The notes beneath the pieces are model-generated. The model ran no database searches, was not told the DNA's origin, and was given only the letters and a program-made list of their open reading frames with translations. A DNA stretch of 64,000 nucleotides from Escherichia phage CAU_ECP01. Shown here one piece after another: positions 14,939-57,685 of the stretch. The stretch is taken from sequence record PQ572755.1; one strand, written 5' to 3'. The first letter of the stretch is position 1; each line of letters opens with the position of its first letter. Position numbers and translations under genes: made by a program.

Positions 14939-14960
14939 GGGAGACTTCGGTCTCCCTTTT
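14939..14960 (+). terminator. intrinsic terminator, GGGAGAC-UUCG-GUCUCCC plus U-tract
   Basis: 7-bp GC stem, UUCG tetraloop, TTTT at 14957-14960. Confidence 0.8.
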
Positions 14961-14992
14961 GTGCGTTTAGGGCAGAAAAAGTTTAAAAAAGT

Positions 14993-15021
14993 GTTTACTC
15001 TCCTGTAGGATGTGTTACTAT
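14993..15021 (+). promoter_or_regulatory. T4-type early promoter
   Basis: GTTTAC 14993-14998, 17-bp spacer, TACTAT 15016-15021. Confidence 0.6.
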
Positions 15022-15063
15022 AGACTTGTACCACCTAATCAATAAAACAAACCGGAGAACAAA

Positions 15064-15432
15064 ATGAAAATCAATCTGAACTCATACATCAAATGTAAAG
15101 ACCACGACGGTTATAAAGCTATCGAAATTAAAGAATTCCAGTGGATGTTATACAAAGAGCAATTTGAGTTCGTAGGTTGTATGACCCCTGAAGGTCCTTC
15201 TGATGATTTCTCTTGGAAAATTGTGTTAGCAAACTTTTTCACAGGTGACACATACGAATTAAAAACTATTATTACAGGTAAAATTCGTTCAGAAACATAT
15301 GTTGACGAAGAAACTGGTTACTCTGAAGATGTTACATGGTATCAAAATGGACGCATTACAGCAGATAACCTGATCGAAAAAATGAAAGCCAAAGGTGTTT
15401 TAAATTTAGACAATTGGATTAAAGTTGCATAA
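15064..15432 (+). CDS. hypothetical early protein
   Basis: 122-aa ORF with GGAG SD. Confidence 0.5.
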   Translation: MKINLNSYIKCKDHDGYKAIEIKEFQWMLYKEQFEFVGCMTPEGPSDDFSWKIVLANFFTGDTYELKTIITGKIRSETYVDEETGYSEDVTWYQNGRITADNLIEKMKAKGVLNLDNWIKVA

Positions 15433-36624: not shown

Positions 36625-36656
36625 AAAAAAGGGGACCTTTACGGTCCCCTTTTTTT
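36625..36656. terminator. bidirectional intrinsic terminator (A6-GGGGACC-uuuac-GGUCCCC-T7)
   Basis: 7-bp GC stem flanked by A-run and T-run, between convergent rnlB and gene 24. Confidence 0.8.
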
Positions 36657-37939
36657 CATTCATCTATAATAATTTTAGGCAATTTAACACCAAGTAAAAC
36701 AGACAAGTCTGAACGTCCTGCCATTTTATCCATGTCCCCGCCATCAATTATTCTCGCTTCTTTTTCGTCTTTTGCTACTGTGTAAGGATTTGCTGATAAA
36801 GCGTATCTAACCAATAAACCAATAGACGGTTGCAAGCTTTCTGGATCAACTACAACTTTAAATGCACCAACATGTTCAGGGTCATCTAAGTCGAGACCTT
36901 CTGTATACGGGGCATAGAAAATTGATCCAACAATTTCTTTTTCACCGATATTTTCTACTACGCCAACGATCACATAATCTAATGGACTGTTAGTATCGCA
37001 ATAAAGCGGTAAACCATTAGCTAAGAACCCGTAAGCATTTTGTGAAAGATACTTATCATCTTCTGGTTTATGTTTTAACCAACCTGAAGCAGCAAGAATA
37101 GCAGCTGCACGAGCTGAAGCTACACAAAACGTCGCAGTATAAGTTGACTCTTTTTGAATGTGTGATACCATTTCACACACCATTCGATATAACGAACGAC
37201 CTGCTTCTGGAGCGGATGCATAGCTCAAGTCAATAAATCCGGTGTCAGTAATTCCAGTAACTTTATAACGTTTCGATACCGTAATTAAAGACTGAAGAAT
37301 ATCTTTATTAATTTCATCAGCCATTTCAGTAGCAAGCAAATCTTCTAAGAAGTTAGGGGCATCAAATCCATTCGCTTCCAAATCTTGCGCTAATTCAACC
37401 GTGAGGCCGGTTTTAAGTTTACGAGATTTGACTGAAGTTTGCCATTTATTAATTTGGAATCTTGCATCAGAAATTTCGCTACCGGAGCTTTCAAATTTGC
37501 TTGTCACCGCTGCATCTGAAAATAACCGTACCTTTAAATGAACAACTGCAATCTGAAGAGCTAATTCTAGATCACTTTCTTGAATATCTGCAAATGGTGT
37601 ATCTTCTAGCACTTTATAGACGATATTATTATATTTGAAAAAATCGCCTTTATTTAGTGTGACTTTTGATTCTTCTGTGAGCTCGGTAATTTTTTCTCGG
37701 TCTACATATCCAGCTTCACCTGCATAAGTAGCACCAGTTTTAAACGTTAATTCGTTGTCTGGGTTAAGATATTTAATACCATAAAAAGCAGCAACAGGTT
37801 GATTAGTTCTTTGTGTTGCTACAATGTCAGAATATATTAATTTAGTCGTAGCGCGAGTCAAAGCAACGAGATTTGGGCGACCGATTGAGTTGCTAGTAGA
37901 CGTTGTAGATTCACGCAATAATTTTTGGATTTTACTCAT
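36656..37939 (-). CDS. 24: head vertex protein gp24
   Basis: 427 aa; near-identical to T4 gp24 from memory. Confidence 0.9.
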   Translation of the reverse strand: MSKIQKLLRESTTSTSNSIGRPNLVALTRATTKLIYSDIVATQRTNQPVAAFYGIKYLNPDNELTFKTGATYAGEAGYVDREKITELTEESKVTLNKGDFFKYNNIVYKVLEDTPFADIQESDLELALQIAVVHLKVRLFSDAAVTSKFESSGSEISDARFQINKWQTSVKSRKLKTGLTVELAQDLEANGFDAPNFLEDLLATEMADEINKDILQSLITVSKRYKVTGITDTGFIDLSYASAPEAGRSLYRMVCEMVSHIQKESTYTATFCVASARAAAILAASGWLKHKPEDDKYLSQNAYGFLANGLPLYCDTNSPLDYVIVGVVENIGEKEIVGSIFYAPYTEGLDLDDPEHVGAFKVVVDPESLQPSIGLLVRYALSANPYTVAKDEKEARIIDGGDMDKMAGRSDLSVLLGVKLPKIIIDE

Positions 37940-37958
37940 TGCATTTTTTCCTTATGTG

Positions 37959-37966
37959 ATATAGAT
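37959..37966 (-). promoter_or_regulatory. late promoter (TATAAATA) for gene 24
   Basis: TATTTATA on the plus strand 20 nt upstream of the gene 24 start. Confidence 0.6.
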
Positions 37967-37980
37967 TATTTATAAAGATT

Positions 37981-38010
37981 GTTTACAACGTATTTGGTAT
38001 GTGATACTAT
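37981..38010 (+). promoter_or_regulatory. T4-type early promoter
   Basis: GTTTAC 37981-37986, 18-bp spacer, TACTAT 38005-38010. Confidence 0.6.
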
Positions 38011-38040
38011 AGACTTATCAACTACAGAGGAGTAAACAAA

Positions 38041-38310
38041 ATGACTAAAGCACGTTTCTTACGAGATACTTTAAAAGTTCTGGAAGCTGAAGCAGTTAAG
38101 TTAGTAGAAAAATATGGTGCAAAAGTTAATGGTAATGCCTTCAACAAAGTATGGATGAAAGTTGATTCTGAAGCTCGAGCTAAAGGTTATTGGGCCACTG
38201 ATAAACTTGCATCATTCAAAAACAAAAACGGTTCTCCGGCATATGTCCAAGAAGGTATGCCTAATTGGCAAAATATTTTGAAAACTTACATCGAAATTGC
38301 ACAGAAATAA
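38041..38310 (+). CDS. hypothetical protein, opposite-strand gene between 24 and 23
   Basis: 89-aa ORF with GAGGAG SD, own early promoter and a shared terminator. Confidence 0.45.
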   Translation: MTKARFLRDTLKVLEAEAVKLVEKYGAKVNGNAFNKVWMKVDSEARAKGYWATDKLASFKNKNGSPAYVQEGMPNWQNILKTYIEIAQK

Positions 38311-38320
38311 AACCAAAAAT

Positions 38321-38338
38321 GGGAGACCGAAGTCTCCC
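38321..38338. terminator. terminator hairpin (GGGAGAC-UUCG-GUCUCCC on the minus strand), main terminator of gene 23
   Basis: Identical 18-nt hairpin to 14939-14956 and 57668-57685; U-rich tract follows on the minus strand. Confidence 0.7.
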
Positions 38339-38362
38339 AAAATAAGATTTAATCAATTAAGA

Positions 38363-39931
38363 TTAGATGCCTTTTACATATACACGGCGGAAGTAAGCGT
38401 TCTTACCAAGGCTGTTCAGGATAGACGGCATACCGGACTGGATGCGAGCACCTGGAGCCTGCAGGGAACTTTCAGCAAATGGGTTAACACCGATACCGTA
38501 ACGAGTTTTAAAGCCCATTACCGGCTGGAAGTTCTTAGGATCGGAACCACGCAGTGGGGTAAGTGCAACGTAAGGAGCATAGTAAATACCTGCATCCATT
38601 TCGTTAGCGCCTTTGTAACCAACGGTGAAGTAATCCTGTTTAGCATACTGGTCGATGTATACGCGGTATTTACCACCAAGTACACCGGCAAATACAGACT
38701 TAGTAGTGTCAGTATTAAAACCAGAAGCCAGACCCTGTGCAGCGTAAGAAATACCAGTATCAACTGAAGCCAGTACGTTAACTACGTTACGGGAAGCGAT
38801 AATGAAGTTACCTTCACCACGACCGGTTTGACGAGCAATTTCAACTGCTTCTTTATCAATCTGGAACAACAGAGATTTAAAGCTTTCACCGGCCCAACGA
38901 GCACCACGGATGTCAATCGGGTCCTGGAAGTCAAATACACCAGCTTTAGAACCAGGAGTCAGGGTCATACCAGATTTACCGACCTGTGCCGAGTAGTTAA
39001 TCCAATCAACAACTTCACGGTTGATTTCTAGCATAATTTCTGTAGCCAGAATACCGCTCAGTTCAGCATCAGCATCCATACCGTGTACTGCACGGAGGTC
39101 TTGTGCTAATTCGATAGAGTAAGCAGCTTTCAGCTGGCGAGATTTAGCTTCGATAACTTGTTTATCGATACGGAAGCCCATTTCATTCCATGGGTTATCG
39201 GTAGAACCGTTGAAACCTTCCTGGAGTTCAGCGATAGAAGTAGCCATACCTTCAGCGATTTCTACCAGTGCACCAGCTTCCATTTGTTTCTTAACTTCTG
39301 CATCTAATTTAGCTGCATCAGTTGCACCAGAATCAAGTGTTACGACAGCAGAAGCTTGCAGATATACAGTACCAGTTTCTTGGAAGAAGTGAGTATAGAT
39401 ATCACCTACAACAGTAGTAGTGTCAGCAGCCAGAGCTGGGAATTTCTTAGCAGCACCCTGACCAGAGAACATCGCGTCTGGGGCATACATCGGATGGAAA
39501 GCTTCTTTAGCGCCAGCAGCGATAGGGTCTTTACCATATACTGCACGGAGAGCAAATACCTGACCGGTCGGGCTGTTCATAGGCTGAACACCACAAATAT
39601 CAAAAGCGATCAGATTAGGAATAGCACGACGAACCATACCCATAACTGCCGGCCCAATCTGGGTTACTGCACCAGAGGTTTGACCTGCTGCGATGTTCTG
39701 AGCATTATAACCGTGGTCACCACCAATTTCAGCTTCGGTCAAGAAAGAACCAAATGCCTGAGCGATTTTCTCGTCTTTATATTCAGGGGATACTTCGAAA
39801 TCTTTTTCCTGGTTTTCGAAGATTTTAGCGATAATAGCCTGCTTGCTATTAGCGATTTCCGGCAGGCCTTCACCTTCCAGCAGTTCTTTCCATTTGTCTA
39901 CGAGCTGAGCTTTAGTTTTGATAATAGTCAT
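38363..39931 (-). CDS. 23: major capsid protein gp23
   Basis: 522 aa; near-identical to T4 gp23 across the whole length from memory. Confidence 0.95.
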   Translation of the reverse strand: MTIIKTKAQLVDKWKELLEGEGLPEIANSKQAIIAKIFENQEKDFEVSPEYKDEKIAQAFGSFLTEAEIGGDHGYNAQNIAAGQTSGAVTQIGPAVMGMVRRAIPNLIAFDICGVQPMNSPTGQVFALRAVYGKDPIAAGAKEAFHPMYAPDAMFSGQGAAKKFPALAADTTTVVGDIYTHFFQETGTVYLQASAVVTLDSGATDAAKLDAEVKKQMEAGALVEIAEGMATSIAELQEGFNGSTDNPWNEMGFRIDKQVIEAKSRQLKAAYSIELAQDLRAVHGMDADAELSGILATEIMLEINREVVDWINYSAQVGKSGMTLTPGSKAGVFDFQDPIDIRGARWAGESFKSLLFQIDKEAVEIARQTGRGEGNFIIASRNVVNVLASVDTGISYAAQGLASGFNTDTTKSVFAGVLGGKYRVYIDQYAKQDYFTVGYKGANEMDAGIYYAPYVALTPLRGSDPKNFQPVMGFKTRYGIGVNPFAESSLQAPGARIQSGMPSILNSLGKNAYFRRVYVKGI

Positions 39932-57667: not shown

Positions 57668-57685
57668 GGGAGACCGAAGTCTCCC
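57668..57685 (-). terminator. UUCG hairpin (GGGAGAC-UUCG-GUCUCCC) after gene 8
   Basis: Third identical copy of the 18-nt hairpin; followed on the minus strand by UUUCG and the gene 9 late promoter. Confidence 0.5.

Follow-up and report, generated by a model that had tools for sequence, protein, structure and literature searches.

The window, a 64,000-nucleotide stretch of Escherichia phage CAU_ECP01 (sequence record PQ572755.1), belongs on sequence identity to an RB69-like T-even phage of the genus Mosigvirus: its region 37900-38400 is 99.4-99.8% identical to about 100 Mosigvirus genomes (e.g., APCEc01 and PhAPEC2). The PhAPEC2 locus (99.6% identical) is annotated with gp24 (head vertex), a hypothetical protein 'similar to RB69ORF188c' and gp23 (major capsid), with RNA ligase 2 further left of gp24, and its ORFs pair one to one with those of the window. 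On the left flank, gene 24 (capsid vertex protein; 427-aa ORF, gp24 in PhAPEC2) occupies 36656-37939 on the minus strand, and its late promoter, TATAAATA (TATTTATA on the plus strand), was read from the sequence at 37967-37974, also on the minus strand. This late promoter is invariant across all aligned T-even loci and stands back to back with a predicted early sigma-70 promoter of the T4 type on the opposite strand (37981-38010, plus strand; GTTTAC(A), TGa, TACTAT). Downstream of the latter lie a Shine-Dalgarno sequence (GAGGAG, 38027-38032, plus strand) 8 nt before the ATG and an 89-aa ORF (38041-38310, plus strand) whose product matches the phrog_6003 profile. The plus-strand segment 38033-38306, the sole stretch that could not be aligned with Mosigvirus LF82-7, is treated below as an exchangeable module. 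The intrinsic terminator hairpin of gene 23 (38320-38339, minus strand; 8-bp stem, UUCG loop, U-rich tail) follows, and gene 23 itself (major capsid protein; 522-aa ORF, gp23 in PhAPEC2) forms the right flank at 38363-39931 on the minus strand. The original prediction of a plus-strand 89-aa ORF between the minus-strand genes 24 and 23 held for every element of this layout.

Early promoter and gene 23 terminator

The hexamers GTTTAC (37981-37986) and TACTAT (38005-38010) are separated by an 18-nt spacer; aligned as a sigma-70 promoter, the same sequence reads TTTACA-17-TACTAT with an extended -10 (TGa, 38002-38004). Hexamers, spacer and extended -10, as well as position and orientation before the ORF, agreed with the T4-type early promoter consensus (GTTTAC, a spacer of 17-18 nt, and TAnnnT behind a GT/TG-rich extended -10; PMC1524935), and the -10 ends 31 nt before the ATG. 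When the window was searched for GTTTAC-N15-TGNTANNAT, 7 matches with at most one mismatch were recovered against 0.66 expected (a count reached in 0 of 100 shuffles), and the exact copies were all on the plus strand (5 of 5), each ending 27-31 nt before an ATG. This enrichment, taken with the placement of the exact copies before ATGs, points to a recurrent early-promoter type of the phage rather than to chance. The -35 and TGn-TAnTAT are kept in seven other T-even loci (Mosigvirus, Dhakavirus and metagenomic relatives), Gaprivervirus VR7 retains the -35 with a variant -10 (CATAAT), the region from -35 through -10 is identical in RB69, and GGAG is present at the matching distance before the ATG in all homologous loci. 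The hexamers, the motif count and the conservation across genera bear out the earlier claim that the ORF has its own consensus early promoter. Unmodified host sigma-70 RNA polymerase would be expected to transcribe the ORF in the first minutes of infection, the early transcript running toward the 3' end of gene 23. No transcriptome of any Mosigvirus, Dhakavirus or Gaprivervirus was found in the literature. Megablast with the promoter segment (37940-38045) also showed that most Mosigvirus records contain a second match, 28 nt or longer, at another site (230 places in 144 records, outside the window); these second matches are not the hairpin.

These regulatory signals had been predicted for RB69 (Nolan et al., 2006; PMC1524935, supplementary files): an early promoter upstream of ORF189c (Pe:109605), a late promoter upstream of gene 24 (Pl:109573) and a terminator '23-><-RB69ORF188c'. 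In the same study, 13 of the 57 predicted RB69 early promoters precede novel ORFs (PMC1524935).

The hairpin (38320-38339) reads TGGGAGAC-CGAA-GTCTCCCA on the plus strand, where it is followed by AAAAUAAGAUUU without a U-tract; on the minus strand it reads GGGAGAC-UUCG-GUCUCCC and then runs into a U-run, AUUUUUGGUUUU. By folding, the hairpin is highly stable (z-scores: minus strand -4.2, plus strand -5.4). Because the U-run is found on the minus strand only, the hairpin is a canonical intrinsic terminator for gene 23 only and not a symmetrical shared one, and it is called on the gene 23 strand only by ARNold (PhAPEC2) and by TransTerm (RB69). Of the proposal that both transcripts share this terminator, the half concerning gene 23 was sustained by the U-run, while the half concerning the early transcript, which meets no plus-strand U-tract, was not. 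The hairpin would give the early transcript a stable 3' structure and probably only weak termination. An identical or compensated hairpin occurs in VR7, with T-runs on both sides, and in relatives in which the 23-24 slot is empty; it is the backbone's gene 23 terminator and not part of the cassette. Rfam returned only sub-threshold chance matches.

The 18-nt hairpin GGGAGACCGAAGTCTCCC was found three times in the 64 kb (0 expected), at 14939-14956 (minus), 38321-38338 (plus) and 57668-57685 (plus), each copy being oriented with the UUCG loop and the U-run after a gene end. At 57668 the hairpin is followed by the late promoter TATAAATA, an arrangement that resembles an 'empty slot'.

Coding selection and the predicted protein

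Matches to the ORF were retrieved by tblastn from 240 phage records, about 120 of them at least 80% identical (Mosigvirus type) and about 120 at 30-38% identity. The latter group comprises Dhakavirus (JS98 orf173), Gaprivervirus (VR7ORF190c) and some Mosigvirus mosaics, all of which carry the gene in this slot, likewise on the strand opposite to the head genes, and metagenomic intermediates of 60-70% identity occupy this slot too. The reading frame is intact over at least 80% of its length in about 238 of the 240 matching records, and an intact 89-aa gene is present in the window and in about 118 other Mosigvirus-type records. Absence of the ORF from every relative, raised originally as the outcome that would count against a gene, was thus not what was observed.

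Substitution rates were estimated by the Nei-Gojobori method at unsaturated distances, where omega was 0.16 for the window against the homologue P0015 (pN 0.24, pS 0.68) and 0.14 for JS98 against Dhakavirus 04086; in more distant pairs synonymous sites were saturated and the protein could still be aligned without large gaps. Residues M1, K3, F6, G31, N32, N35 and Q70 are invariant family-wide, L14, L21, N30 and A45 nearly so, and W51 is invariant in the T-even members. Amino acid identity of the ORF is 31-37% against 83% for gp23 and 69% for gp24. These comparisons of sequence show an ORF that is under purifying selection yet evolves far faster than its neighbors. Two homologues carry evidently spurious names in their records, 'NADPH-dependent curcumin reductase CurA' and 'glycosyl hydrolase family 25' (P0015 from JGI and H73 from phage EAWsc9, PQ341120).

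The 89-aa product contains 13 Lys and 3 Arg (pI 9.74), and the T-even members as a group have pI values of 9.2-9.9, GRAVY scores of -0.44 to -0.96 and no conserved Cys or His. AlphaFold2, run on a 15-sequence alignment, gave a model with pLDDT 92.9 and pTM 0.79 and a topology of helix 3-25, helix 31-48, beta hairpin 52-60/66-70 and helix 76-88. We infer from the composition and the model a basic, soluble cytoplasmic protein of about 10 kDa with a predicted helix-helix-beta hairpin-helix fold. In BFVD the sole significant match was a 31%-identical family member, whose independently built model superposed with a TM score of 0.85, and a Foldseek search of the PDB with the pLDDT-93 model returned nothing at E ≤ 0.001.

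The product matched phrog_6003 (PHROGs, unknown function) over its full length (E = 5.3e-45; residues 1-89 on profile positions 1-90 of 90). For the 89-aa product, neither NCBIfam nor PADLOC yielded a meaningful hit, and the best hits of a sequence-profile search of the PDB (E = 0.025) were to unrelated proteins. Pfam DUF4859 was considered and rejected (17.4 bits, below the gathering threshold of 22.6; matched by 3 of 15 family members). An exhaustive HMMER profile search of 1.84 billion representative proteins gave 9 matches. Two of these, P0023 and P0025, are long repeat proteins aligned over residues 40-79 only, by way of short stretches that recur; their scores were judged to be inflated by the repeats, since the Dhakavirus branch does not conserve the residues that match, and they were rejected as homologues. 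Two word-indexed profile searches of a 5.8-billion-sequence set gave about 20 clusters, all phage-like, with no annotated or fused relatives among them. Searching the 89-aa protein by homology and by structure recovered a family, phrog_6003, and no characterised relative. Literature searches by ORF names, by accessions and for Mosigvirus/RB69 transcriptomics yielded no transcript, protein, phenotype or function data for any member.

That the ORF might be no gene at all, but a chance open frame in an AT-rich spacer, could be argued from its shortness, from the want of a characterised homologue and from its being split into two tiny ORFs in the RB69 reference. With omega about 0.15, about 238 of 240 records having at least 80% of the frame intact, the NGN motif, W51 and Q70 invariant across lineages of 30% identity, and AlphaFold2 pLDDT at 93, this reading is barely credible and is effectively refuted by the selection analysis. 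On the substitution pattern and the structural model, the ORF is a real protein-coding gene under selection.

An RNA role with an incidental ORF was weighed against the same evidence. Here the promoter and its transcript would be the functional element, acting as an antisense 'anti-late' RNA into gene 23 or as insulation. Read-through antisense to gene 23 is plausible, the hairpin having no plus-strand U-tract, and the promoter is better conserved than the ORF. Purifying selection on the amino acid sequence is nevertheless clear while synonymous sites are saturated, the predicted fold is confident and conserved, phages with an empty slot lack such a promoter, and the T-runs on either side of the VR7 hairpin would stop the early transcript; the RNA account is accordingly judged improbable, and the ORF is regarded here as the functional element.

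The gene 23-24 slot and exchange between genera

In Tequatrovirus ESh17 and F1, Marfavirus Potts1, Winklervirus CHI14, Slopekvirus PMBT1 and Acinetobacter phage Acj9, the 23-24 spacer is only about 85-110 nt long and holds just the gene 24 late promoter and the hairpin; the GTTTAC promoter was seen in occupied slots only and is missing from these empty ones. The empty CHI14 spacer reads TATTTATAAAG-CCATAG-AAACAAGAATGGGAGACCGAAGTCTCCC (the right-hand string also given as AAACAAGAATGGGAGACC), and the occupied metagenomic locus L013 reads TATTTATAAAG-(GTTGTTTACA...ORF...TAG)-AAACAAGAATGGGAGACCGAAGTCTCCC, with promoter and ORF exactly between the two strings of CHI14. By this base-level match the inserted unit consists of promoter, ribosome site and ORF, and the hairpin belongs to the backbone. 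Since the outgroup slots are empty, insertion is the parsimonious direction, and the slot was presumably filled rather than emptied.

The slot of T4 carries segD, a GIY-YIG homing endonuclease gene, on the opposite strand and without the 89-aa ORF, and that of PYps10T also carries segD on the opposite strand. In Dhakavirus 04086, LF82-7 and phage F2, a segD-like gene stands on the same strand 3 nt behind the ORF; no endonuclease gene accompanies the ORF in JS98, in VR7 or in the window's own type. Four states of the slot are thus seen: empty, segD (T4), ORF, and ORF with a segD-like endonuclease. The expectation that such islands house homing endonucleases or moron-like genes was borne out for this slot, which holds segD in T4 and is empty in several relatives.

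Further features of these loci were recorded. Krischvirus MIZ3 (RB49-like; L018, 2558-3274) shows a fifth slot state, a 23-24 spacer of about 700 nt with two very small ORFs that share the strand of the head genes. Two tandem gene 24 copies (24a/24b) adjoin the slot in Dhakavirus, Gaprivervirus and related metagenomic phages (L002, 1-2395; L003, 1-2399; L010, 1337-3901; L013, 1338-3897), and a single gene 24 is found in Mosigvirus, T4 and Dhakavirus 04086. In the 04086 record (OR842557; L004, 2771-3442, plus strand) the segD-like GIY-YIG ORF 3 nt past the ORF homologue (223 aa) is unannotated, gp23 is annotated in part only, and a spurious opposite-strand ORF is also annotated.

In T4 (NC_000866, 107253-107281; L006, 2754-2782, minus strand), a promoter-like sequence, TTTACA-17-TATTAT with an extended -10 TG, lies 21 nt upstream of segD. 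It agrees with the consensus at 10 of 12 positions, with A in place of the conserved G at the first -35 position, and is positionally homologous to the early promoter of the window, which suggests that T4 segD sits behind a predicted homologue of that promoter. In a review of the T4 endonuclease genes, segD was the only one oriented against its neighbors and no segD-specific promoter was identifiable (Edgell et al., 2010; PMC2988022).

Exchange of the module was traced in Mosigvirus LF82-7. Its locus is 96.5% identical to the window up to 38032 (the end of the Shine-Dalgarno sequence), cannot be aligned across 38033-38306, and resumes at 38307 with 97.8% identity. The gap holds an 88-aa allele that is 96.6% identical in amino acids and 93.6% in nucleotides to that of Dhakavirus 04086, against 31% and 50.7% identity to the ORF of the window, and a 219-aa segD-like GIY-YIG gene starts 3 nt after it. 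The flanks follow the window instead: LF82-7 gp24 and gp23 are 98% identical to those of the window (62% and 82% to those of 04086), with flanking nucleotide identity of 96-98%. This mosaic shows that the ORF module is exchanged between genera, the breaks falling at the conserved promoter and hairpin, and that in at least one lineage a segD-like gene moved with it. The arrangement of ORF and segD-like gene in LF82-7 is shared by phage F2 (NC_054913; L025), which is classed as a Tequatrovirus and has a 5.2-kb locus 95% identical to that of Mosigvirus LF82-7.

Two vehicles fit the exchange. By analogy with the PeSL cassettes described for RB49 and phi1 (PMC2839356), the module may have moved by recombination between conserved regulatory linkers; alternatively, flanking DNA may have been co-converted during endonuclease-initiated repair. 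The physical linkage to segD favors co-conversion over linker recombination for the LF82-7 event.

The same linkage, and the fact that the slot is the segD slot of T4, would be accommodated if the ORF were a remnant or accessory subunit of a homing endonuclease (e.g., a DNA-binding partner of SegD), the segD-like GIY-YIG gene lying 3 nt behind the ORF in 04086, LF82-7 and F2. When compared by hhalign with the neighboring SegD-like protein, however, the ORF product gave a probability of 0.45% and kinship was rejected; no Pfam or NCBIfam match to a nuclease motif (GIY-YIG, HNH, LAGLIDADG) or helix-turn-helix family was obtained; and segD occurs alone in T4 as the ORF does in JS98, VR7 and the window's type. 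An endonuclease-derived origin is accordingly considered very improbable, and the earlier description of a lysine-rich product (13 Lys) without a recognisable nuclease motif is retained.

Outside the T-even phages, one distant homologue (P0024) lies after a GpJ-type tail gene in a siphovirus-like contig and another (P0021) within a run of small early-type genes of a non-T4-like phage, each (loci L007 and L008) with its own sigma-70-like promoter and its own hairpin. Compared by DNA similarity, the phages carrying these distant homologues had no close relative in the phage collection searched. Within Mosigvirus, the gene is split by two indels in the RB69 reference into ORF189c (29 aa; NP_861879) and ORF188c (41 aa; NP_861878), and RB69 otherwise matches the window exactly or almost so in ribosome site, hairpin and the bulk of the coding DNA. 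The indels (NC_004928, 109291-109531; L009, 9292-9532) are a 1-nt insertion, located in a short segment rich in mismatches, and a 1-nt deletion beyond it. Other broken copies were found in mogra (51 aa) and 310Ecol104PP (64 aa), and a truncated copy in the metagenomic homologue P0018. If the indels of RB69, mogra and 310Ecol104PP are real, laboratory propagation does not require the gene; a frameshift in an old or single record could also be a sequencing error instead of gene loss.

That the protein might serve head morphogenesis, perhaps by modulating or chaperoning gp23 or gp24, was considered on account of position: every T-even genome with the ORF keeps it in the same slot, beside gene 23 and a single or duplicated gene 24, and strict retention of one position in three T-even genera could reflect a link to the head genes. 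The promoter, however, is an early sigma-70 promoter on the opposite strand and not a late one. Tequatrovirus, Winklervirus, Marfavirus, Slopekvirus and Acinetobacter phages with homologous gp23 and gp24 do without the ORF; RB69, a viable and much-studied phage, has it in frameshifted form; and the distant homologues lie away from head genes in non-T4 phages. A head function is on this evidence improbable, to about the same degree as the RNA role above.

Interpretation and comparison with known systems

That the locus holds a real gene in a promoter-led exchangeable cassette is regarded as highly likely. The fuller account preferred here, a genuine non-essential accessory gene carried in a promoter-led mini-cassette that is flanked by the late promoter of gene 24 and the terminator of gene 23, is considered probable. 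The early promoter of the gene, its dispensability, its fast divergence with purifying selection and its horizontal spread among enterobacterial phages together suggest an effector of host takeover or counter-defence, by analogy with other small T-even early proteins. Speculatively, the product might bind a host macromolecule, either nucleic acid or an acidic protein, in the service of host takeover or to counter an enterobacterial defence, with a benefit in some hosts only; such a benefit would explain the spread among unrelated enterobacterial phages and the repeated loss. This assignment of the product as a small host-binding effector is put forward tentatively, as a possibility that may well prove wrong. 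A bolder proposal, and an unlikely one, is that the 89-aa protein is the founding member of an uncharacterised class of small, basic early effectors whose fold is absent from the PDB and BFVD, and that it neutralises one particular enterobacterial defence or host factor; its two deeply diverged alleles, 31% identical and exchanged between genera along with a segD-like endonuclease gene, would mirror an arms race with this target, and the cassette would also serve as landing site for the spread of SegD-type endonucleases.

If the product turned out to act in host takeover or against host defence, the repertoire of such factors would gain a new small fold, and there would be a handle on host-range differences among Mosigvirus isolates used in phage therapy. 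By itself, another annotated hypothetical early gene at a site of T-even genomes already well known for its plasticity carries little weight. Its value is that of a clean worked example, in which four slot states can be lined up base by base and promoter-led gene insertion between a late promoter and a terminator is followed by exchange between genera.

The closest precedent is RB69ORF189c with ORF188c, which is the same locus with the frame broken in the RB69 reference and intact in the window. T4 segD resembles the window ORF in slot, opposite-strand orientation and neighbors, and its locus has a promoter-like TTTACA-17-TATTAT with TG and a UUCG hairpin of the same kind; the two proteins are unrelated, however, the ORF having no nuclease motif and T4 having no ORF.

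In the PeSL cassettes of RB49 and phi1, a lone ORFan, at times one within the virion module, is expressed from a strong sigma-70-like early promoter, and conserved regulatory sequences serve as linkers for modular exchange (Arbiol et al., 2010; PMC2839356). Like these, the module of the window was swapped exactly between promoter and hairpin (38032 and 38307). Whereas the PeSL stem-loop lies in or beside the promoter, the hairpin of the window is about 310 nt downstream and belongs to gene 23, and no stem-loop was found beside the promoter in 37940-38040, so that the compact PeSL motif is not reproduced. A separate site of the window, 14939-15063, resembles the PeSL of RB49 and phi1, with a terminator hairpin, an early promoter about 35 nt further on (GTTTACT...GTGTTACTAT; hairpin to promoter, 14939-15027) and a plus-strand ORF at 15064.

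Lambdoid morons are single extra genes with their own promoter, inserted between genes that are adjacent in relatives, often antisense to their neighbors and dispensable (Hendrix et al., 2000, summarised in PMC2839356). The window ORF is likewise an extra antisense gene that brings its own promoter and separates two genes which adjoin each other in relatives; unlike a lambdoid moron, it has no terminator of its own, a feature also listed by Hendrix et al. (2000), and its expression is predicted to be early lytic rather than from a prophage. The moron-like behavior originally proposed was recognised in its own promoter, its exchange as a block and its frameshifts in some phages. Given the RB69 annotations of Nolan et al. 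(2006) and the cassettes already described, the window ORF is an annotated instance of a described phenomenon: an ordinary, moron-like early accessory gene. To this are added here the proof of coding selection, the comparison of four slot states with exact boundaries, and the link to segD transfer.
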